Below are positions 1 through 9,133 of a stretch of 9,133 nucleotides of DNA, piece after piece. Position numbers and translations under genes: made by a program. The stretch is taken from IMG/VR virus record IMGVR_UViG_2585427757_000007, positions 1 through 9,133 of that record. One strand, given 5' to 3'. Position 1 is the stretch's first letter. Every line of letters starts with the position of its first letter. The DNA comes from a virus. Taxonomy: Duplodnaviria; Heunggongvirae; Uroviricota; Caudoviricetes. The notes under the pieces were generated by a model. The model was not told where the DNA came from and did not search any database. It saw only the letters and a list, made by a program, of their open reading frames with translations.

Positions 1-120
1 TCTGATAGGCTCATACCGCTTTTGCGCAAAGCAGATGGGCCTGAGGTTTGCTTGTGACCCCAACGCATGAGCAGATGGCTGGCAGGTGCCGCTAACACCC
101 ACCAGCCGCCCATTACCACA

Positions 121-147
121 AATTAAAAAGCCTTCACTGCGGAAGGC
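121..147 (-). terminator. Candidate intrinsic terminator after the small CDS 134..331
   Basis: Perfect inverted repeat GCCTTC (130-135) / GAAGGC (142-147) with a 6-nt loop; on the minus strand the stem is followed by TTTTTAATT (129-121). The stem includes the stop codon at 134-136. Confidence 0.4.
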
Positions 148-331
148 GTCTGTAACAACCGAACTGATAATCTGCCAGACCCGCCATAACAAGCTGAGTC
201 AGTATTAACTGGCAGCGTTCGCGTGAAAGGTAAGTATTCTGCGCAATTTCCCCGACGGTCGCCGGTTCGGTGACGCTTAATTCATTAAACACCACTCTGG
301 CGGTTTCGGTCATATCCTGCTGTTTTAGCAT
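134..331 (-). CDS. Small hypothetical protein (65 aa), possibly a winged-helix DNA-binding protein; first gene after the candidate tR'
   Basis: Part of track ORF 134..454. I prefer the internal ATG at 331..329 (MLKQQDMTETARVV...), which has a purine-rich SD (AAAAGGGAAAAAGG) just upstream. The GTG at 454 sits inside the terminator-like hairpin, so it is an unlikely start. The functional guess is from sequence pattern only. Confidence 0.4.
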   Translation of the reverse strand: MLKQQDMTETARVVFNELSVTEPATVGEIAQNTYLSRERCQLILTQLVMAGLADYQFGCYRRLPQ

Positions 332-454
332 GCCTTTTTCCCTTTTCCGGTTAACGTGACATACCAATACCTCTTGTCGAAAAAGCCAGCAAGCTGAAAG
401 ACCGGCATTCGCAACCACCAGCGCATTTAACGTCCTGTACCGCTTTTCGGGCAC

Positions 455-476
455 AAAAAAAACCGCATAAAGCGGG
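455..476 (-). terminator. Candidate tR'-like intrinsic terminator downstream of the Q-like gene
   Basis: Minus-strand RNA: CCCGC-UUUAU-GCGG (4 GC pairs) followed by eight U (462-455). It lies about 170-190 nt past the Q-like stop (644-646), similar to the lambda PR'-6S-tR' spacing. The stem is short, so confidence is moderate. Confidence 0.4.
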
Positions 477-480
477 TTCT

Positions 481-643
481 TTCAGGTGTCCATGTCTGCT
501 ATTCGCCTCGCGGTATAGCTTTGCGAAGCGTAGCTGGATTGAAACAGTTTATGGCTAAAAATACAAGCTTTTTTTCTAAAACTGCACAAACCTTACTACC
601 AGCCAAAAATCCTCTTCGTGCAACAACAAACGCCCTCCAGATT
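481..643 (-). promoter_or_regulatory. Candidate late promoter (PR'-like) and Q-utilisation region between the Q-like gene and the tR'-like hairpin
   Basis: Positional inference only. It is a non-coding interval right after the Q-like gene, with several weak -35/-10-like hexamers on the minus strand (for example TTGTGC-N17-TTGTAT); no single promoter can be resolved by eye. Confidence 0.3.
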
Positions 644-1198
644 CTAAGCGTCAGTAAAAGAAAATGCATCTCGCATCAGTGGATACAGAATAAACTCAGC
701 TATTCTCAGCCACATATCTATACGATTGCGGCATGTTGCATAGCACCACTCAGGGTGAACCTCATTCAACAATTCAGCCATTTTGCGTTTACTCATCCCC
801 CGCCCTTCGTACCTTTGCCGCAGGATATCAATCAATCCAGGATAACGTGCAAGCGCTTTACTTATCACCCCATCAATGCGTAACGCCTCTGCATCAGTAC
901 AGTGAGACAACCAGCTCTTCTGTCTGCCAGCGATCATCTCTCGCAAGAATGCTTCCAGCTCTGGTTTATCAATCCCTGACTCCCTGATTCTACGCAGAGC
1001 TTCATTGACCGCGGTTTTTGTCAGTTTTTTGGATGCCAGCAACTGATTGAACATATTTCCTGGTTTGCCACCACCTATATACGACCAACGCCCCCACATC
1101 CGTAATTTTCCCTGGATCCAGACGGCTTCCAGCGTTTTTAGACGTAAATGCTCGCCGCTTTTACCTGTAATTTCCGGGTATATCATATTTACGATCAC
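644..1198 (-). CDS. Putative late-gene antiterminator (Q-like) protein, 184 aa; family not identified
   Basis: Sits directly downstream of rusA with a GTGA start/stop overlap (1195-1198) and is followed by a non-coding stretch ending in a hairpin plus U-tract, as expected for a Q/PR'/tR' arrangement. No lambda-Q-type CxxC zinc ribbon was recognised, so the function is inferred from position. Confidence 0.5.
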   Translation of the reverse strand: MIVNMIYPEITGKSGEHLRLKTLEAVWIQGKLRMWGRWSYIGGGKPGNMFNQLLASKKLTKTAVNEALRRIRESGIDKPELEAFLREMIAGRQKSWLSHCTDAEALRIDGVISKALARYPGLIDILRQRYEGRGMSKRKMAELLNEVHPEWCYATCRNRIDMWLRIAEFILYPLMRDAFSFTDA

Positions 1199-1560
1199 TC
1201 ACTCTCAATTTTGTAAATCTTCACGCCCAGCCGCCCCCCAGGAACGCGCTGACCGCGCACAATATTGATTTCATCAAACTGCTCGTCGTCTATGAGAAGT
1301 CCGGCATGCGTCAGCGCATCCAGTGGTGCTTTCAGGATATTGTCCAGGTCGCGACGACGTTTATCCGGTGGCTCTGCAATAATCTTTATCGCCAGCCTTC
1401 CGGACAGGTTTAATTTCAGCCGCTGCTGGCGAACAATAAGCGCCACATCACGGCGATAACGCTCACCGGCTTTTGATACAAAATATGTGCTGCCACGACG
1501 TCGCCAGTAAGTGTTCACCGTTGGCGGGTAAGGCAAAACAAATTCTATGCGTTCAGTCAT
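1195..1560 (-). CDS. rusA: RusA-family Holliday junction resolvase (crossover junction endodeoxyribonuclease)
   Basis: The 121-aa product (MTERIEFVLPYPPTVNTYWRR...DKRRRDLDNILKAPLDALTHAGLLIDDEQ...) matches the RusA pattern, including the acidic DLDN block; size and position (before the Q-like gene) are typical. SD GGAAAG lies upstream of ATG 1560. Confidence 0.9.
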   Translation of the reverse strand: MTERIEFVLPYPPTVNTYWRRRGSTYFVSKAGERYRRDVALIVRQQRLKLNLSGRLAIKIIAEPPDKRRRDLDNILKAPLDALTHAGLLIDDEQFDEINIVRGQRVPGGRLGVKIYKIESE

Positions 1561-2619
1561 TCATGCTTTCCACTTCAGGACACCCGAATTTCTCGCGTGC
1601 ATTAAAAAACGAATCAGCAACAACAGCTGGCTGCCGTGTTTTTCTTCAAAATCTTTTACCCCGGCGTGTAGTTCGCTATGGCATTTACGGCACAGCGGAA
1701 TAACAAACAAATCATCAGCCTTTGTTCCCATCCCTCCCAGTCCATGACCAATGATGTGATGCGGATCATCTGCCTGATTGCCACACGTCATGCATTTCTG
1801 CGTTTTTACCCAGCGCGTGTATACAGGCATCTCTTCCCGTTGTGGTTTCTGGCGCTGGAGATACTGAGCCGGTGACTCCGGATCAACGGCAATGCTGACC
1901 ACCGTCTTTTCCTGTGGTGGATTCTGTTGCTGGTGGGCGTGAGGCAACGGCGCAATATTTTTTGTGCGCTGCTTCAGTATGCTGATGGCGGTCTGCTCTC
2001 CCGGTACGATGTCGCTCTCGCGGTATACTGAGCGGATTTTTTCACTCGGAAGCTTCAGGATTCGACGCGCCATATTTTCGGTCATGGCATCCACTACATC
2101 ATTTACAGAAGCCCAGCAGCACAATTCAGCCAGCGATAATTCCCGCTCCTGCGTGCCATTCACTGCATGGCGTATGACGTCAATCATCCATGCTGACAGG
2201 TTTTGATGAGCAAGTTGCCCGAGTGATTCGGAGGTCTGGTCACGCAGCTGGTTGTCGCAGTGCCAGCACAACACCATCGCGCCGGTACCGTAACGATGTA
2301 TGACGATTTCACTGTGATGATAGTCACCATGAGGCCACTGGCAGGATTTAACGTGGCGTAACAGCCAGTCAAACAGCGCACCAGCACCGCCAGCAGCACG
2401 AATCACCCGCTCATCGCTGAAAAATGGCAGTAGTGATTTATCCTCCGCCAATGGCTGGCGAACGGCAGGAACGACTCCGGACGGCAGACCGCGCATGCTT
2501 TTCGGTTCCGGCTCCACCAGTACACGACCGCTGCGGAATACCTGCATGGATTCACGACCAGGCTTAAGGACCACCAGCCCAAGTTCCGGTACCGGAACAG
2601 ATCGAAGTAATACCCGCAC
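1561..2619 (-). CDS. YdfU/DUF968-like prophage protein with C-terminal HNH-like Cys/His motif (352 aa)
   Basis: GTG start at 2619 with a strong SD GGAGG 5 nt upstream. The C-terminal block CMTCGNQADDPHHIIGHGLGG...LFVIPLCRKCHSELH (aa 276-318, nt 1666-1794) resembles an HNH/zinc-binding motif. Size and location match Qin ydfU as I recall. Confidence 0.75.
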   Translation of the reverse strand: MRVLLRSVPVPELGLVVLKPGRESMQVFRSGRVLVEPEPKSMRGLPSGVVPAVRQPLAEDKSLLPFFSDERVIRAAGGAGALFDWLLRHVKSCQWPHGDYHHSEIVIHRYGTGAMVLCWHCDNQLRDQTSESLGQLAHQNLSAWMIDVIRHAVNGTQERELSLAELCCWASVNDVVDAMTENMARRILKLPSEKIRSVYRESDIVPGEQTAISILKQRTKNIAPLPHAHQQQNPPQEKTVVSIAVDPESPAQYLQRQKPQREEMPVYTRWVKTQKCMTCGNQADDPHHIIGHGLGGMGTKADDLFVIPLCRKCHSELHAGVKDFEEKHGSQLLLLIRFLMHARNSGVLKWKA

Positions 2620-2620
2620 G

Positions 2621-2899
2621 TTACCTCCAGATCCGTTGCTGGAATGTGCGGGACGGACGCGGTGGGCGTTCGGAATAAGGGAGTCTGACGTAGATTATCC
2701 AGAGACGATAATCGAGGCTGAGGGCTTTCCTAAACTCATACCCACGTCTGCGGTAGTTCTGAATCAGCCACTCGGCCTGTTCTTCGGTGCAGGGGTCGTG
2801 CTGATACCAGTCAGATTTGAATGTGTGAGGATACCGCTCGTGCGTGCAGGCAAGAACGGTCGAATTATTATGATTGTAATATTTTGCGTTGCGTGCCAT
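2621..2899 (-). CDS. Hypothetical prophage protein (92 aa)
   Basis: ATG at 2899..2897 preceded by SD GGAGA (spacing about 6). Its stop TAA (2621-2623) lies 1 nt from the GTG start of the downstream gene, indicating translational coupling. Confidence 0.6.
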   Translation of the reverse strand: MARNAKYYNHNNSTVLACTHERYPHTFKSDWYQHDPCTEEQAEWLIQNYRRRGYEFRKALSLDYRLWIIYVRLPYSERPPRPSRTFQQRIWR

Positions 2900-2965
2900 C
2901 GGTTTTCTCCGGTGGCACGGTGTTACTCAGCGGGAGTTCAGCCCCGCGCAAGATTGTAGATGAGT

Positions 2966-3229
2966 TTATTCTTCTGAAAAAGCAGAAAAGCCAGCTTTTA
3001 TTCCGATCTCTTTCAATGCCTGTAATGAAGTGACAAACTCACCATCGCGCAAGATAAATCCGTCCGTCACTCGGGCATCCACAAAATTAATTAACGCAGC
3101 CCCACTCTTTCTTTGCTTCTTTCGCAAACACAGAACGCGGCAATGACTAACAATATTTCCATTTTCAACGCACACAGCATAGAGGCCATCTTCACAAAAA
3201 ATTTTACGCAGTTCTTCGATGTTCATCAT
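2966..3229 (-). CDS. Hypothetical small prophage protein (87 aa); occupies the position that rem holds next to hokD in Qin (identity not verified)
   Basis: ATG-ATG start at 3229 preceded by SD GGAAGGA (spacing about 5). No recognisable motif. Confidence 0.6.
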   Translation of the reverse strand: MMNIEELRKIFCEDGLYAVCVENGNIVSHCRVLCLRKKQRKSGAALINFVDARVTDGFILRDGEFVTSLQALKEIGIKAGFSAFSEE

Positions 3230-3445
3230 CAGAATCCTTCCGGATAATTAGCTCTCCCCTTCAGGGGGCCATCCCTCTTATCCCTGCGCGCTACTTAAGT
3301 GTTTTGGATTCTATATCCGGTGTCTTAAAAAAGTTAAAACGCATTGAAAATAAAACAAAAACCGTCGAAGCGGGTTAAGTGCGGGTGCGTTGAGGATGCC
3401 GACACATCAGAGGTGGCGGGAGATTACTCTCCCGCCAGGTCACTC

Positions 3446-3601
3446 TTACTCTCTAGATTCGTAGTCTACGAAAACAGCAACCTCCATCTGGCCGGTTCGG
3501 ATTCGTACCTCGCAGAGGTCTTTCCTCGTTACCAGTGCCGTCACTATGACGGTTAAACAGATGACGATCAGGGCGATTAACATCGCCTTTTGCTGCTTCA
3601 T
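3446..3601 (-). CDS. hok: Hok/Gef-family type I toxin (HokD/RelF-like), 51 aa
   Basis: Product MKQQKAMLIALIVICLTVIVTALVTRKDLCEVRIRTGQMEVAVFVDYESRE: a single transmembrane helix plus the conserved C..R.....E.A.F...E tail, near-identical over about 38 residues to E. coli HokD as I recall it. ATG at 3601..3599 with SD AAGGAG about 9 nt upstream. The track ORF 3446..3628 begins at an upstream GTG that I consider less likely. Confidence 0.9.
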   Translation of the reverse strand: MKQQKAMLIALIVICLTVIVTALVTRKDLCEVRIRTGQMEVAVFVDYESRE

Positions 3602-3659
3602 AGCCTGCTTCTCCTTGCCTTTCGGCACGTAAGAGGCTAATCTTCAGTTGTCGAGACAT
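3453..3659 (-). CDS. mok: mok-like overlapping reading frame (modulator of killing), about 68 aa
   Basis: An alternative frame overlaps nearly all of hok and starts at ATG 3659..3657, about 58 nt upstream of the hok start, as in canonical hok/mok/sok loci. The track ORF 3453..3758 is the longest form; the shorter start is an inference. Confidence 0.45.
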   Translation of the reverse strand: MSRQLKISLLRAERQGEAGYEAAKGDVNRPDRHLFNRHSDGTGNEERPLRGTNPNRPDGGCCFRRLRI

Positions 3660-3877
3660 AAGACTGGCCTCACTTCGATTTATAGTCGGGTGGGGCTTTT
3701 CTCTATCTGCCTTTTGGTGTTCATGCCTGAGACAGATAGCCTCAAGCACCCGCAGCAATTCTACTTATGACGCAATTTAATGACAACAACTCTACAGCGG
3801 TAGTGTGTTTAACTATTGACATTGATTAACTCATTATTCAAAATTTTTGCGTACGCATTAATGATTTTGTGTCGTTG

Positions 3878-3900
3878 TTGTGATGGTAAAAAAATCACAA
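3878..3900. promoter_or_regulatory. Perfect dyad TTGTGAT-N9-ATCACAA overlapping a TGgTAAAAA extended -10-like element about 35 nt upstream of gene A
   Basis: TTGTGAT at 3878-3884 and ATCACAA at 3894-3900 are exact reverse complements. The spacer contains TG at 3884-3885 followed by TAAAAA at 3887-3892. Candidate operator and promoter for the A-B operon. Confidence 0.35.
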
Positions 3901-3934
3901 ACGATCTAACAATAACATAGGTGATATTTTCAAT

Positions 3935-5077
3935 ATGGAAATTAAGCAAGTTATCGTTCATGAACTAATTAAAGAAGCAAAAAAGGATTTTGATTTTTCT
4001 AAGCCGTATCAGCTTAGATCCACTCCTCTCGATAAAACCAATCCAATTGTTATAAAACTTATTCAAGACATTTCATCTTTATATGGAACCAAAGGCAATT
4101 CTGCACATTATGGCGTTTTTAAAGAGGAGAAAACAGAACAAGGGCCTGTGCCATCAATATTTGAAGAGTATTCTCAGTCAGAGGATAACATTAATGAAAA
4201 GTTTGTGCCTTTTTCTATTGAAGTGATGAAGCAACTTGTAAAAAAAGCCAAAGAAGAACCTTGGTCATCTGGTGGTTTTATTGTGTTTTGTGACTATATT
4301 GTAAATAACAATAAATTCTTTTTAATTGCAATGATTAAAAAGAAAAATGGTGTTACTATCAGCAACAAACTCGAACCTGAAGAAATGATCCATTTGGATC
4401 TATCCAAAATACACCAAGCAGCAAGAATAAATTTCAATCTCTACCAACAATATAAAACTGCTGATGAGTCTGAAAAAATTGACTTAAGTTATCTAAGTTT
4501 CGTAAGTAAAGGAGTGGGTCAATCCACATCAGCATATTTTATTGCAGCAATAGGATGCGACAAATCACTTGCAGCAGCAAAAGCCACAAAAAAACTACCA
4601 ACTGTCGCAAAACAATTTTTTAACCAAAAACCAGAACTTAAAGCATGTGCCAATAGATTTAAACATGACGTTATTGCATATTTAGACACACAAGCAGCTA
4701 AAAATTTATCAGCCCGATTGAGTGATATTGAAGTAATTGCAGCACGTCACATGACAAATTTAGATGAGTCTACCAAAGAATCTTACACTCACGAATTAAT
4801 TCTTTTTTTAAATAGTGAAAATGTGAGAATCCCAACTGAATTTGTTATCAGTAAACGGGCGTTGAAAGACATTAAAAACATCACCTTTAAGACTGATGAG
4901 ATTGGATTTAATTTTGACAAGTCTCTCCTTGGAGTGACAGCTGATGATGATGTGTGGTACGATGAAACAACTGGAAGATTATCATTTACAAACTTACCAG
5001 CTGAATTTAAGGCTAAACTAAGCGCTGTGGTAAAAGAAAATTTAAAAATAAGGGATAGTGGAAAAGAAAATGGCTAA
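3935..5077 (+). CDS. Nucleoid-associated protein YejK/NdpA (NA37 family) homologue, divergent, 380 aa (gene A)
   Basis: ATG 3935 with SD AGGTGA upstream. Several blocks align with E. coli YejK as I recall it: IVHELIK vs IALHQLIK; LYGTKGNSAHYGVFKEE vs VYSAKNKAYGLFSEE; GGFIVFCDY vs GGFVLFCHY; FNFDKSLLG...VWYDETTGRLSF vs INFDAMLLG...IFWDPATDTLTI. The gene is about 30% GC, unlike the flanking backbone. Confidence 0.85.
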   Translation: MEIKQVIVHELIKEAKKDFDFSKPYQLRSTPLDKTNPIVIKLIQDISSLYGTKGNSAHYGVFKEEKTEQGPVPSIFEEYSQSEDNINEKFVPFSIEVMKQLVKKAKEEPWSSGGFIVFCDYIVNNNKFFLIAMIKKKNGVTISNKLEPEEMIHLDLSKIHQAARINFNLYQQYKTADESEKIDLSYLSFVSKGVGQSTSAYFIAAIGCDKSLAAAKATKKLPTVAKQFFNQKPELKACANRFKHDVIAYLDTQAAKNLSARLSDIEVIAARHMTNLDESTKESYTHELILFLNSENVRIPTEFVISKRALKDIKNITFKTDEIGFNFDKSLLGVTADDDVWYDETTGRLSFTNLPAEFKAKLSAVVKENLKIRDSGKENG

Positions 5078-6290
5078 TTTATCAACGGTTGTAGATTTTT
5101 ATAGAGCATCATCGAAGCCCCAATTCGACGGACGTTCTTTTTCTGCAACTGTTGAAATAAATAATAACAATCAACGTTTGGTAAACTTGTTAGTAAATTC
5201 ACATAAAGCCTACGGTTATTTTGAAGATGTTGATATTAATAATGAGTTCATTGACGAAGACGATTTAAAATCACACCCAATTAAAATTGGAGATAAATTC
5301 TCATACACTTACATATCCCCTAAAAATGGAGCAGAACGTTTCTATAACTCAATTCAAGAGTTCCTTTGTATAAACTCACTCAAGAAAGGTGTAATTCCTA
5401 AAGAGTATTACATAATCGATGAGGATTTTCATCCGTCTGATTCAAGTAAACCGGACGAAATTATAAAAATCGAGAAAATTTGTGCAATTATTTCTTCCCT
5501 GGCTGAGATTGCGCACTTTCACGATACAAAATCGGAATCTTCAAATTATCGTTTAGTTTTCGTGAAAGATTCTGACGCAAAATCAACATCTATTATTTTA
5601 GAAACGTGCATTACACCTAAGATGCTCAATATAAATGACATTGATGATGCTATCATCAAGAGTCTTTTAGATGTAAAAAACGCCCAAATCCCCCATCAAG
5701 CAGAAAAAACAGGTATTTTCAGGAATACCATAGTGGAGTTTATTCTCGATAACAAATATGATTTTGAAAACCTAATTTGCCATTGGGATAAATTTGTAAA
5801 GCTATTTGAAAATAATTTATCCACGTATATGAGTGGTTTTTCATTCCATAAGGCACGAAAAGAAATTGCGAAGTCTGAAGCAGAGTTTGCTGAAAAAATC
5901 TCAAAACTTATTACTGATTTGACGACAAAAGTATTATCAATCCCTGTGTCTTTACTGGCATCCTTCGGGATTATAAAACTAACATCAAGATCTGAAATGT
6001 TACTCGTTTTATTAGGTGTATTGTTAAGCTCACTTATTTTATATATGGTATTACTCAATCAGGATAAACAATTAAAACATATTTACCATGCTAAAGATAT
6101 AGCATTTATGCCTTTTCTAAAAAACAATGAAAATTATCCAGAAGACCTTAAGAAGGACATTAATGAGGCTCTATATGAACTATCAAAGAGCCAAACCAAA
6201 TGTGATAATACAATAAAGTTATTTATGTATTTGGCTTGGCTACCAAGTTCTATTGCAGCAGGAATATTTCTTGCGAAGATTTTTATTTAG
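5070..6290 (+). CDS. Membrane-anchored protein of unknown function (gene B); about 300-aa soluble N-terminal region plus C-terminal hydrophobic helices
   Basis: Preferred start is ATG 5070 (MANLSTV...), which overlaps the gene A stop (5075-5077) by 8 nt; the track ORF begins at GTG 5058. Hydrophobic segments (track numbering): VLSIPVSLLASFGIIKL (about 292-308), MLLVLLGVLLSSLILYMVLL (314-333) and LFMYLAWLPSSIAAGIFLAKIFI (388-410). AT-rich; no known motif recognised. Confidence 0.8.
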   Translation: MANLSTVVDFYRASSKPQFDGRSFSATVEINNNNQRLVNLLVNSHKAYGYFEDVDINNEFIDEDDLKSHPIKIGDKFSYTYISPKNGAERFYNSIQEFLCINSLKKGVIPKEYYIIDEDFHPSDSSKPDEIIKIEKICAIISSLAEIAHFHDTKSESSNYRLVFVKDSDAKSTSIILETCITPKMLNINDIDDAIIKSLLDVKNAQIPHQAEKTGIFRNTIVEFILDNKYDFENLICHWDKFVKLFENNLSTYMSGFSFHKARKEIAKSEAEFAEKISKLITDLTTKVLSIPVSLLASFGIIKLTSRSEMLLVLLGVLLSSLILYMVLLNQDKQLKHIYHAKDIAFMPFLKNNENYPEDLKKDINEALYELSKSQTKCDNTIKLFMYLAWLPSSIAAGIFLAKIFI

Positions 6291-6306
6291 CTCTAACAGT
6301 TAGAGC
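6290..6306. other. Short palindrome between convergent genes B and C; weak candidate bidirectional terminator
   Basis: GCTCTAA (6290-6296) / TTAGAGC (6300-6306) with loop CAG. It contains the last base of the B stop codon (TAG 6288-6290) and the whole C stop codon (TAA on the minus strand, 6300-6302). The stem is AT-rich and lacks a clear U-tract on either side. Confidence 0.3.
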
Positions 6307-6815
6307 ATTAATACTCCCTCCAATACTCCCATCGCTGCTTGTATTTTTTTTCTAATAGTCCCATCCGCACATTTCTTTCTTTTTGCGATCTTTCTCAAAG
6401 AAACGCCTATTACAAAGTGGGCAACAATTAACTCATATTCATCTATTTTATATTGTCTGAGTCTCAATATCCACTCATCAATCACTCGCCCTTCATCATC
6501 GCGGCTCTGGCGACGCAATTTTTTACCATGAGGCACAACATCTTTATATTTATCAGCCACTTGCTGCCAGTTGATAGAACTATTTCCAGCTACAGCCCAA
6601 GCTCCCCAACAGTCCAAAATATCATATATATTAGCATTGCTATCTACCTGTTTTTTATATTCTTTTTTGAAGCGAGCAAGAAGCATCCTGGCCATCGTTA
6701 TTATTTCTATACTTGTAACTGATTCATAAGCATCAGGAGAAATAATCCTCCCATCACTTAATGCCCTTTCACTAAGATTTGCTATTTCCAATAATCGTTC
6801 TTTAGTTATTTCCAT
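6300..6815 (-). CDS. Q933/QuuD-family (PF06530-type) antiterminator-like protein with about 60-aa N-terminal extension (gene C), 171 aa
   Basis: Preferred start is ATG 6815..6813 with SD GGAG 7 nt upstream; the track ORF starts at GTG 6827. It shares a WGAWA motif and the C-terminal block ELIVAHFVIGVSLRKIAKRKKCADGTIRKKIQAAMGVLEGVLML with the DLP12/933W-type Q protein as I recall it (...LLVDYYVVGMTF...CSDGYIGKRLQKAEGIIEGMLMAL); this region also resembles a sigma-70 region-4 HTH. About 38-40% GC. Confidence 0.7.
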   Translation of the reverse strand: MEITKERLLEIANLSERALSDGRIISPDAYESVTSIEIITMARMLLARFKKEYKKQVDSNANIYDILDCWGAWAVAGNSSINWQQVADKYKDVVPHGKKLRRQSRDDEGRVIDEWILRLRQYKIDEYELIVAHFVIGVSLRKIAKRKKCADGTIRKKIQAAMGVLEGVLML

Positions 6816-6826
6816 TATTATCTCCA

Positions 6827-6842
6827 CCGCCCTTTCGGGCGG
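6827..6842 (-). other. GC-rich hairpin immediately upstream of the gene C ribosome-binding site
   Basis: CCGCCC (6827-6832) / GGGCGG (6837-6842), a perfect 6-bp GC stem; on the minus strand the loop is GAAA (a GNRA-type tetraloop). No U-tract follows on either strand, so it is not a classical terminator. It abuts the SD of gene C. Confidence 0.4.
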
Positions 6843-6929
6843 CCTCCTGATGTTCTGAGGGTGCAGAAATCCCTCCGGTTAAGGATTAAATTTTATTTAC
6901 AGTGCTGGATTTAATTATTCAGATTTGGA

Positions 6930-7205
6930 TTATGCTTTCTCTTCACTCCGGTATACAAGAATTACAACGTCACCTCTGCTAATCACGCGAGCTGGCTCTC
7001 CTGGTTCTATACTGTCAATATCGAAGGTCTCAAAAAACGCATTCATTGCCTTCTGCCGCTGCGTCTGTTTACAGCGTTTATTCCATTCTTTCAGTAACAT
7101 CAGTGACAGCCACCGCCATGAGCAGAACATGATGTAGCACCAACCAAGAAGCGCCAGCCCCGTATTGAGGGCCGTACCAATCGTCATTGTTGCGTCGATA
7201 TTCAC
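6930..7205 (-). CDS. Small hypothetical membrane protein (91 aa)
   Basis: GTG start at 7205 preceded by a strong SD AGGAGGAGG; the start overlaps the stop of the upstream gene (GTGA at 7202-7205). Hydrophobic stretch IGTALNTGLALLGWCYIMFCSWRWLSLMLL. Confidence 0.6.
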   Translation of the reverse strand: MNIDATMTIGTALNTGLALLGWCYIMFCSWRWLSLMLLKEWNKRCKQTQRQKAMNAFFETFDIDSIEPGEPARVISRGDVVILVYRSEEKA

Positions 7206-7498
7206 TGTACCTCCTCCTGGAAAATAACTGCATGCCCCAGTTTCTCCGCCAGCGCCAGTTCTGCCTTAGCGCCTGCTGACCGCTGCCAGCCTTTCAGCAT
7301 GTAAATCGCATCCACACAACGAATCATTGCCATGCAAATATCCATGTAGTGCGGCTGTGTCAGCCCGTCCGGAAGCACAGCCGGATTTAAAACGGTATGC
7401 CCTTCCCGTTTCAGTTCCTCTTCTGCCTTGTGAAACGCCTCACGGTTGAAATTTTCATACCCCGTCATTGGACCGGCGATATAAACCCTCACCCTCAC
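7202..7498 (-). CDS. DUF4406 / nucleoside 2-deoxyribosyltransferase-like small protein (98 aa)
   Basis: N-terminal VYIAGPMTG motif typical of this fold. GTG start at 7498 preceded by SD AGGAGG (spacing about 7); GTGA overlap with the upstream stop. Confidence 0.6.
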   Translation of the reverse strand: MRVRVYIAGPMTGYENFNREAFHKAEEELKREGHTVLNPAVLPDGLTQPHYMDICMAMIRCVDAIYMLKGWQRSAGAKAELALAEKLGHAVIFQEEVQ

Positions 7499-7911
7499 GC
7501 CATCACCTCCTGAAAATTACCCTGATAAAATGCCAGCACACGCTGCATAACCTTGCTTTTCTGGCACTCGAGACAGATTATGTTCTGACGCCTGTCGTAG
7601 TGGCGTATCTCTCCATCTGGTAATGAATAAATCAGGCCAGGGTCGCTCTTCTTTTTCGCTGCACCTTTAGACATCTCTTTATGGGCTTTTATCCAGTCTT
7701 TACGTACCTGCTCAGAAGGGAATATTCCATGCCCTGAACCATATACAACACCACGGTCTACCAGTTCTTTCGCCAGAACTTCAATCAGATGTCTCGTCGC
7801 CCCTGTTTCATTTTCCAGTTGTTTACGCGTTTTCCTACCATCTCTGCGTACCAGTTCCACAATACGCGCCTTTACTTCTTCCCGTTGTTCGGGAGTAAAA
7901 ACTTTTACCAT
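7495..7911 (-). CDS. Hypothetical prophage protein (138 aa)
   Basis: ATG 7911 preceded by a strong SD AGGAGG. Follows the DnaC-like gene after a 14-nt gap. No motif recognised. Confidence 0.65.
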   Translation of the reverse strand: MVKVFTPEQREEVKARIVELVRRDGRKTRKQLENETGATRHLIEVLAKELVDRGVVYGSGHGIFPSEQVRKDWIKAHKEMSKGAAKKKSDPGLIYSLPDGEIRHYDRRQNIICLECQKSKVMQRVLAFYQGNFQEVMA

Positions 7912-7925
7912 AAGTCCTCCTGAAA

Positions 7926-8672
7926 TTACTTCACAACCCTCAGGTGTCTGACATTCGAACGCCAGCTCTCCCAGTTAAAATTCACCCAGCGACCACCGTT
8001 CATGACCATGCGGTCCATCACACGCTCGCCAAGAAGCGTACTCATCGCTACGTGGTTCAGGTTCGTCAGCATTCCGACACTACGCATCGAAGCCGTTCTG
8101 CGGTCGACTATCTGGTTCAGTGTGACCTGCTCGTTGCGCGTATCCCGCTGCATTCCGATTTCATCCAGGACAAGCAGGTCAACATCACACAACCCCTGTA
8201 AAAATTTTTCGCCTGAGTTTTTATTGTCGTAGCTGTTGTGTAACGCCAGCATCACATCAGCCACCGTTATCACAATCACGCTGCGACCTTTCGCCAGAAG
8301 ATGATTGCCAATGGCGGCTGCAAGGTGGTTCTTTCCGGTACCCGGCTTACCGCTGAACACAAAATTCGTGCACCCGGTCATCAGTTCGTCAGCGATGGAT
8401 TTTGCCTGGCTCAGCGCATGTTTTTGCCCGTCGTTCTGCACCTGATAATTCGCAAACGAGCATTTGCTGTGCAGAGGCTGGATGCCCGAACGATTCAGGA
8501 TTTTTTCCACCCGCAACTGGCGATTCTGGCGGTTGATCTCCTCGCTACGTTTTCGCCCTTCAGCCAGTTGCCACTCGCGCCACTCATCCACTGTCCGGTA
8601 CGGCGCGATTACATGCTGCGGGGTCAGCTTACGGATACGCTCAAGAACACCACCTGCCGCGATATTTTTCAT
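7926..8672 (-). CDS. dnaC: DnaC-like replicative helicase loader (IstB-like AAA+ ATPase), prophage copy
   Basis: Walker A FSGKPGTGKNHLAAAIG and Walker B DLLVLDEIG. Similar across the full length to E. coli DnaC as I recall it (RSGIQPLHSKCSFANYQV vs RSGIRPLHQNCSFENYRV; VTLNQIVDRR...GMLTN...LLGERVMDRM). Confidence 0.9.
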   Translation of the reverse strand: MKNIAAGGVLERIRKLTPQHVIAPYRTVDEWREWQLAEGRKRSEEINRQNRQLRVEKILNRSGIQPLHSKCSFANYQVQNDGQKHALSQAKSIADELMTGCTNFVFSGKPGTGKNHLAAAIGNHLLAKGRSVIVITVADVMLALHNSYDNKNSGEKFLQGLCDVDLLVLDEIGMQRDTRNEQVTLNQIVDRRTASMRSVGMLTNLNHVAMSTLLGERVMDRMVMNGGRWVNFNWESWRSNVRHLRVVK

Positions 8673-8678
8673 GGCCCG

Positions 8679-9133
8679 TTACCCCCTGAACCCCGGCGGA
8701 ATTTCGGTATCCGGCTCAGAAATATGATTCACACAACGCTGTACAGACGAACGCCCCAGGCGGATAACCAGTTCATCCCATTTTCCGCGAAGCTTTGACG
8801 GACTCATGATATTTTTTACCCAGAATGGATCCCGCTGCGCCCGACCAAACATTTCACAAATTTGTCTGTGAGTTCTGCCATCCAGCATCCGCATTGTGCG
8901 CACGTCGTTGGCCCATGCGGTCCAGTTGGGTTCTTTCGGTCGCGAAATCTCGCCATCATCGCTGGCGGCCTGCTCGTAAAGACTCACGATTCGTCCCCAG
9001 ATCCACTGCGCACACGCCAAATCCTCCTGATTGCCCCACTGGCGTTTTTTTGCACTGAACACAACCGCGTCAGGGTGTCGGGTTAAAAAATCCTGTTCAA
9101 CCGCCTGCGGGTCCGGTTGCGAAGCTTCCGGAC
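8679..9133 (-). CDS. DnaT-like (primosomal protein 1 C-terminal domain) replication protein; 5' end lies beyond the window
   Basis: The reading frame stays open from 9062 to the window edge (my translation of 9063-9131 has no stop). The C-terminus ...NHISEPDTEIPPGFRG matches the E. coli DnaT C-terminus (...SEPDSQIPPGFRG) as I recall it. Together with the DnaC-like gene this forms a dnaTC-like pair. Confidence 0.75.
   Translation of the reverse strand, partial: PEASQPDPQAVEQDFLTRHPDAVVFSAKKRQWGNQEDLACAQWIWGRIVSLYEQAASDDGEISRPKEPNWTAWANDVRTMRMLDGRTHRQICEMFGRAQRDPFWVKNIMSPSKLRGKWDELVIRLGRSSVQRCVNHISEPDTEIPPGFRG

Follow-up and report, generated by a model that had tools for sequence, protein, structure and literature searches.

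We analysed a window of 9,133 nucleotides (nt), the whole stretch at positions 1 to 9,133 of the virus record IMGVR_UViG_2585427757_000007 in IMG/VR. The window represents the early-right/nin region of a lambdoid prophage, whose phage genes lie on the minus strand. Between a hok/sok locus and a Q-family antiterminator gene, it carries a segment of low guanine-plus-cytosine (GC) content with two overlapping plus-strand genes, which are referred to here as gene A and gene B. On the basis of sequence comparison and of analogy with published systems, we consider it probable, at roughly 0.7, that A and B constitute a prophage-carried two-gene anti-phage system acting by abortive infection, with a nucleoid-associated sensor and a membrane effector of the type II PANGU/DS-1 kind. 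The original prediction concerned gene A and proposed a prophage-borne, highly divergent paralogue of the nucleoid-associated protein YejK (NdpA), which could reshape the host nucleoid or sense foreign DNA; the partner gene B was absent from it. The features of the cassette and of the segment holding it are as follows.

3768..6299, strand not given: low-GC cargo segment holding genes A and B, between sok/hok (left) and the convergent Q-family gene (right)
3816..3844, plus strand: promoter-like site, candidate only (TTGACA, 17 nt, CAAAAT; about 90 nt upstream of gene A; 10/12 consensus positions)
3935..5077, plus strand: gene A, an ATG-to-stop open reading frame of 380 amino acids (aa); YejK/NA37-fold nucleoid-associated protein (NAP), putative sensor subunit
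5070..6290, plus strand: gene B, a 406-aa membrane protein and putative effector, with its ATG within the last 8 nt of gene A
5070..5918, plus strand: soluble N-terminal part of B (aa 1-283), acidic, modelled as an alpha/beta domain and then long helices; possible docking surface for A
5919..6065, plus strand: predicted transmembrane helical hairpin of B (aa 284-332), with Kyte-Doolittle 19-residue windows up to 2.8 and model helices at 290-303 and 307-351
6219..6287, plus strand: predicted C-terminal transmembrane helix of B (aa 384-406), from hydropathy; model helix 391-405; found in most homologues
6258..6284, plus strand: terminator-like hairpin, candidate only, at the end of gene B (7-bp stem with 3 G-C pairs, then GAAGATTTTT; consensus match only)

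The open reading frame of gene A was recovered at exactly 3935-5077, and its product is named 'nucleoid-associated protein' in the RefSeq/PGAP annotation (WP_001460784.1). The protein had been taken for a full-length member of the NA37 family, and the Pfam search that had been suggested as a check bore this out. PF04245 (NA37) matched with an E value of 2e-51 and 175.8 bits (gathering score 24.6), and residues 7-358 covered positions 1-324 of the 325 in the profile, so that the match is full-length and not a fragment. The PHROG family phrog_3767, 'nucleoid associated protein', was matched with an E value of 3e-73, and E. coli YejK (PDB 9be2) was found by sequence over residues 2-355 with an E value of 3e-14. 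Among the conserved motifs that had been listed, IVHELIK (residues 7-13) and GGFIVFCDY (residues 113-121) were exact. The other two were present, but with longer spacers than had been written: 5 residues and not 4 in LYG.K.....YGVF.EE, and 7 and not 3 in FNFD..LLG.......W.D. Weak Pfam matches of gene A to YafO_toxin and DUF6973 were far below the cut-offs and were disregarded.

The structural comparison with YejK agreed with the sequence searches. The AlphaFold2 model of gene A had a mean predicted local distance difference test score (pLDDT) of 84.9, and its sole significant Foldseek match in the PDB was 9be2 (E 3e-16, probability 1.00, 369 columns, template modelling score 0.46-0.52). The high global root-mean-square deviation between the model and 9be2 suggests a different domain arrangement. 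Gene A keeps the whole YejK fold in this model, and DNA binding has thus probably been retained; the middle part of the protein (residues 101-300) is basic, with a net charge of +5.

The divergence from the host protein was as high as had been supposed. Gene A and K-12 YejK shared 21% identity over 362 columns, and gene A reached 139.4 bits on the NCBIfam YejK equivalog NF001557, below the cut-off of 341 bits. Each of the 5426 complete E. coli genomes had exactly one host yejK gene. This holds for a strain with gene A as well, and gene A is therefore an additional, old paralogue. Capture of the host yejK by the phage was considered and rejected, since the 21% identity and the different GC content indicate an old, separate lineage. 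The gene is also prophage-borne: in strain 602354 it lies within a complete lambdoid prophage, from the integrase through to the tail genes, beside potC.

Gene B is labelled 'hypothetical protein' in RefSeq. Its start at 5070 follows the PGAP annotation, which agrees with the N-termini of the homologues. No match to gene B was found in Pfam or in a sequence search of the PDB, and a Foldseek search of its model against the viral structures of BFVD returned none at E <= 0.001. The PHROG family phrog_5023 was matched with an E value of 7e-70, and 1039 representative clusters (50% identity) matched the B family at E <= 1e-3. The AlphaFold2 model (pLDDT 86.3) showed an alpha/beta domain at the N-terminus and, after it, helical hairpins of great length. 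Residues 1-290 carried a net charge of -9 (isoelectric point, pI, 5.4), and the equivalent part of 19 B homologues had net charges of -7 to -24 and pI values of 4.5-5.3. The position of the predicted transmembrane hairpin was also kept across the family, with hydrophobic segments at 277-343 in all 19 pairs compared.

The association between the two genes was surveyed with a profile of B homologues against one genome per species, which gave 23 loci from Xenorhabdus, Proteus, Shigella, Pectobacterium, Providencia, Ewingella, Pantoea, Pseudomonas, Vibrio and metagenome-assembled genomes. At every one of these loci (23/23), an A homologue lay on the same strand upstream of the B homologue. In the window the two genes overlap by 8 nt (B starts at 5070, A ends at 5077); among the 20 pairs with extracted open reading frames the spacing was -26 to +39 nt in 19, with a 412-nt gap in the twentieth. 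When A homologues were chosen independently, from Klebsiella pneumoniae and Arsukibacterium, a B homologue followed in both. The linkage at the 23 loci and the two further ones therefore makes A and B one conserved genetic unit. Furthermore, the homologues of A and of B became less identical to their window counterparts in step, from 66/58% down to 35/27% (r = 0.92, n = 19). Such correlated divergence is compatible with binding between the two proteins, and shared ancestry would explain it equally well.

About four of the loci appeared degraded. A and B were both frameshifted or fragmented in Shigella flexneri (L013) and in a Pantoea symbiont (L021), in Pseudomonas gorinensis (L019) a gap of 1.7 kb lay between A and B, the latter truncated, and B was truncated at its N-terminus at L018. 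The degraded copies fit a costly accessory system that is often lost.

Both members of the pair have homologues in a validated defence system. DS-1, which is D390 of DefensePredictor, is an E. coli operon of a 391-aa protein with a YejK domain and then a 404-aa hypothetical protein, namely DS-1A (WP_000355468.1; NCBIfam NF053868) and DS-1B (WP_000150292.1; NF053869) (PMC13092281). In the data of that source covered here, it protected E. coli K-12 with a -log efficiency of plating of 7.6 on Bas1 and 2.7 on Bas26, and lowered the plating of T3 and Bas3 by 1.7 logs (PMC13092281). Gene A matched the model DS1_1_antiphage ('nucleoid-associated anti-phage protein') with an E value of 6e-29 and 101.2 bits against a cut-off of 330 bits, as a homologue and not an equivalog. 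Gene B matched DS1_2_antiphage with an E value of 4e-30 and 105 bits against a cut-off of 315 bits, over model positions 31-329 of 337. By BLASTP, gene A matched DS-1A with an E value of 9e-9. When the profile of the B family was aligned with DS-1B, hhalign gave a probability of 97.3% over 285 columns, and the aligned region took in the membrane hairpin and the conserved block that precedes it. Since A and B scored far below the DS-1 cut-offs, they were placed in a sister clade of DS-1. The accessions of the window proteins were looked for in the DefensePredictor supplements and were absent, and the exact pair is thus not among the systems tested there.

The genomic setting of the pair was that of inserted cargo. 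The GC content was 0.30-0.35 over 3751-6250, compared with 0.45-0.56 in the flanks, and 32% for the cassette itself; the two open reading frames on this island run antisense to the phage genes. On the left, common E. coli genome matches stopped at window position 3767, and the 68 nt at 3700-3767, which are common to thousands of E. coli prophages and to 933W sokW, mark the left edge of the cargo. Promoter-like sites in the region were no more numerous than expected from shuffled sequence, and the site at 3816..3844 is a lead rather than evidence. Among the complete E. coli genomes, 4 of 5426 carried the cassette. When the INPHARED phages were searched by DNA at near identity, only the 68-nt sok flank was matched and not the cassette, and a protein search of the same collection found the pair in one phage, Klebsiella phage P7641.

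In near-isogenic prophages, which keep the hokD and the Q-family/DUF4752/DUF4406/DUF977 flanks of the window, the equivalent of the window slot 3768-6299 (4556-5965 of both L040, NZ_CP025856.1, and L041, NZ_CP159170.1) was occupied by another two-gene cassette in the same orientation. This suggests that the site exchanges cargo. The products of the alternative cassette are a DUF6731 protein (304 aa) and a small membrane protein of 159 aa; for the latter, the NCBIfam defence models gave no match, and PADLOC gave only a weak likeness to lambda RexB (E 0.0015). The two are a candidate pair of sensor and membrane effector, as yet uncharacterised.

The A-B pair was found on several other kinds of element. 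A B protein of 90% identity occurs in Salmonella prophages in the same setting as in the window. In other lambdoid prophages, more distant versions (B 37-44% identity) run antisense in the interval from the Q antiterminator gene to the holin/lysis genes; the hosts are E. coli, Yersinia enterocolitica, Pantoea and Klebsiella, and the sequenced Klebsiella phage P7641 has the same arrangement. In Dickeya and Serratia the pair lies within integrase-AlpA-DUF927 primase islands, and in Arsukibacterium it lies in a defence island, flanked by a BrxR-type regulator on one side and a type I restriction-modification methylase (HsdM) on the other. Accessory defence cargo is usually recognised by such traits: it is rare, low in GC content, antisense, replaceable and scattered over mobile elements of unrelated types.

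The mechanism proposed for the pair draws on the PANGU systems, in which YejK-like proteins serve as infection sensors (bioRxiv 10.64898/2026.04.06.716658). Type II PANGU is bicistronic and encodes the NAP Pag2A and Pag2B, whose N-terminus is acidic and DNA-like and whose C-terminus is transmembrane; both genes are needed for defence, and neither gene alone nor the pair is toxic (bioRxiv 10.64898/2026.04.06.716658). PANGU-Ecu, the type II system of a uropathogenic E. coli (UPEC) strain, works by abortive infection. Pag2A binds the acidic domain of the effector with a dissociation constant (KD) of 19 nM, Pag2A-GFP departs from the nucleoid on T4 infection, and T4 escapes through mutations in denA, which encodes EndoII (bioRxiv 10.64898/2026.04.06.716658).

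By analogy, in a healthy lysogen A would sit non-specifically on long chromosomal DNA and would be kept from B. If a superinfecting lytic phage degraded the chromosome, A would lose its DNA and, once free, could bind at the membrane to the N-terminal part of B, which is acidic and putatively DNA-like. Membrane function might then be damaged by B, and the growth of the infected cell would stop before the cycle of the invader was completed. Sister lysogens, and hence the prophage, would be protected. For this detailed trigger, the sensing of chromosome degradation through A, we would give even odds. The earlier suggestion that A could sense foreign DNA is close to it in spirit; the signal in the published relatives, however, is the loss of intact host DNA.

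The assignment of A and B to an abortive-infection system of this kind rests on the YejK fold of A, the architecture of B, the overlap of the genes and their joint inheritance across gamma-proteobacteria, the homology of each protein to its DS-1 counterpart and the setting as cargo. Several observations weigh against it. The two proteins reached about one third of the DS-1 equivalog cut-offs (101/330 and 105/315), five other locus pairs scanned were also low (91-123 bits on DS1_1 and 80-103 bits on DS1_2), and the identity to DS-1A and DS-1B was just 22-25%. A scan of A and B with PADLOC v2.0.0 (2023), a library that predates DS-1 and PANGU, gave no match at E values up to 1. The Foldseek searches found no informative structural neighbour for gene B, and the N-terminal part of B is just moderately acidic (net -9 over 290 residues). 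In addition, the activation of the type II effector and its effect on the cell were left open in the source paper (bioRxiv 10.64898/2026.04.06.716658). The phage targets differ as well: PANGU-Ecu is reported to act on T4, whereas DS-1 was strongest on Bas1 in the rows of its source covered here, which hold no T4 result. The trigger may therefore differ between clades.

Three other explanations were weighed. The pair could serve the cycle of the prophage itself, for example as a DNA-binding device tethered to the membrane with an effect on lysis timing or on DNA injection or packaging, or it could mediate superinfection exclusion at the membrane. This would explain the position beside the Q and lysis genes: at least six lambdoid contexts have the cassette directly beside Q, frequently with the holin on its other side. 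B is also a membrane protein. However, the pair also occurs outside prophages, in the integrase-primase islands and beside BrxR and HsdM, and it is transcribed against the phage genes. It is, moreover, rare and replaceable in otherwise identical prophages, and so dispensable for the phage cycle. We regard a role in the phage cycle as improbable.

According to the second explanation, A is a stand-alone copy of YejK/NdpA on a mobile element, which acts as a transcriptional or architectural regulator of prophage or host genes, and B is functionally unrelated to it. The precedent to which the original prediction pointed, NdpA2 of PAPI-1, is real: this mobile-element protein of the NA37 family is documented as a regulator (PMC8565334). 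A also retains the whole YejK fold in its model, so that DNA binding is probably kept. Against this, A was never seen without B within the clade (23/23 loci and the two further ones), with the frames overlapping or nearly touching, and the pair moves as a unit among unrelated elements. The validated defence pair DS-1 contains homologues of A and of B, and the cassette is antisense cargo outside the phage regulatory region. We consider a stand-alone regulator rather improbable, a degree below a part in the phage cycle, and the function first proposed for gene A is incomplete or probably wrong, as A is the first gene of a conserved two-gene cassette. The third explanation, a toxin-antitoxin addiction module in which B is the membrane toxin and A the antitoxin and which stabilises the prophage without phage sensing, would suit an overlapping two-gene operon with a membrane protein beside a hok/sok addiction locus, but it is most improbable, because the related type II PANGU genes are non-toxic singly or paired and are both required for defence, and because A, with 380 aa and a complete YejK fold, is unlike known antitoxins.

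Returning to A and B as an abortive-infection system, we looked at the contact between gene B and the convergent Q antiterminator gene. In six lambdoid contexts the 3' ends of the two genes abut or overlap, from a 9-nt gap to a 12-nt overlap, at the following junctions.

Window: 6290/6300
L025: 9218-9221
L037: 5170-5179
L039: 9159-9170
L033: 6179-6182
L029: 9221/9231

The contact could reflect joint mobilisation of the two genes, or transcriptional interference between them. Since it recurs in six independent lambdoid contexts, it raises the idea that the cassette is wired to the developmental switch of the prophage itself, such that Q or early read-through at induction would collide with transcription of the cassette and silence it. 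We regard this as unlikely. If it held, the resident phage could replicate, with damage to the host chromosome, while its own suicide system was not set off; in the quiescent lysogen the system would stay armed, and damage-sensing immunity would have a built-in rule for telling self from non-self.

If the proposed function is correct, some of the lambdoid prophages in E. coli and Salmonella equip the host cell with a sensor of chromosome integrity and not of a phage molecule. The clade is widespread, with the 1039 clusters of the B family. Its RefSeq labels are still 'nucleoid-associated protein' and 'hypothetical protein', and PADLOC v2.0.0 (2023), the sole defence library that was scanned, has no model for it. 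The pair would offer a natural, phage-borne test case for how a type II membrane effector is activated, for whether clades respond to different phage nucleases, and for how a temperate phage keeps from setting off the damage sensor that it carries. As an exchangeable cargo site, the slot that hok/sok and the Q-family gene enclose is worth mining.

The remaining features of the window flank the cargo segment on both sides and are given below from right to left.

7926-8672, minus strand: DnaC-like gene
7495-7911, minus strand: Ren-like gene (PHROG 142 'Ren-like exclusion protein', E 1.5e-39; PGAP: DUF977)
6300-6827, minus strand: Q-family antiterminator gene (PF06530/phrog_79 type), adjoining the cassette
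3596-3751, minus strand: sok RNA (Rfam RF01794, 122 bits)
3446-3628, minus strand: hok (Hok-family open reading frame)
1561-2619, minus strand: DUF968/HNH gene
1195-1560, minus strand: RusA
644-1198, minus strand: second Q-like gene (DUF1133/phrog_753 type), upstream of the lysis region

The Ren-like gene may be a second exclusion or defence-related gene of the same prophage. The hok/sok type I toxin-antitoxin locus (3446-3751, minus strand) lies directly to the left of the cassette. Two Q-like antiterminator genes are present within one prophage region, at 6300-6827 and 644-1198, both on the minus strand. The Q-family gene at 6300-6827 has a GC content of 0.37-0.40, below that of the phage backbone; 54 E. 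coli genomes covered it to 80% or more, compared with 4 that carry the cassette. In the prophage of strain 602354, a cluster of tRNA-Arg, tRNA-Arg and tRNA-Ile was found outside the window (L001 15324-15573); it shares the interval from the second Q-like gene to the lysis genes with a DNA methyltransferase.

Among the known systems, E. coli YejK (PDB 9be2) has the same fold as gene A over the whole length, with the 21% identity given above, and A is 46 residues longer. In E. coli, yejK is universal and single-copy, whereas gene A was present in 4/5426 genomes, is prophage-borne and is tied to B. RexAB of phage lambda is a prophage-encoded pair, in which a cytoplasmic sensor works with a membrane effector to abort the infections of other phages. 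The logic of A and B would be similar, and the likeness is one of analogy only, as no relation in sequence or fold was found between the two pairs. NdpA2 of the Pseudomonas aeruginosa integrative and conjugative element (ICE) PAPI-1 belongs, like gene A, to the NA37 family and is encoded on a mobile element; it is described as acting with TprA and MvaT in a transcriptional triad, by which transfer of the ICE is controlled (PMC8565334). Set against NdpA2 as described there, gene A is locked to a membrane partner with homologues in a defence system.

The window pair has the parts list of type II PANGU, a YejK-like NAP and a transmembrane protein, and the two were likened by their described architecture only. 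Abortive infection, the denA-dependent trigger and the relocation of the NAP are features of PANGU-Ecu only. With DS-1, the window pair shares the adjacency of a NAP gene and then a partner gene, and DS-1B has a layout like that of B, with 290 acidic residues (net -9, pI 5.2) followed by hydrophobic helices. The DS-1 genes lie at 220602-221777 (A) and 221780-222994 (B), whereas B of the window overlaps A by 8 nt. DS-1A has an N-terminal CxxC...CxxC extension that gene A is without, and gene B has about 60 extra N-terminal residues compared with the DS1_2 model. Anti-phage protection was demonstrated for DS-1 and is presumed for the clade of the window. The general concept of a YejK-like sensor with a membrane effector, including DS-1, was already published in 2026, and the window pair, as judged from its sequence, is a separate clade below the DS-1 thresholds.

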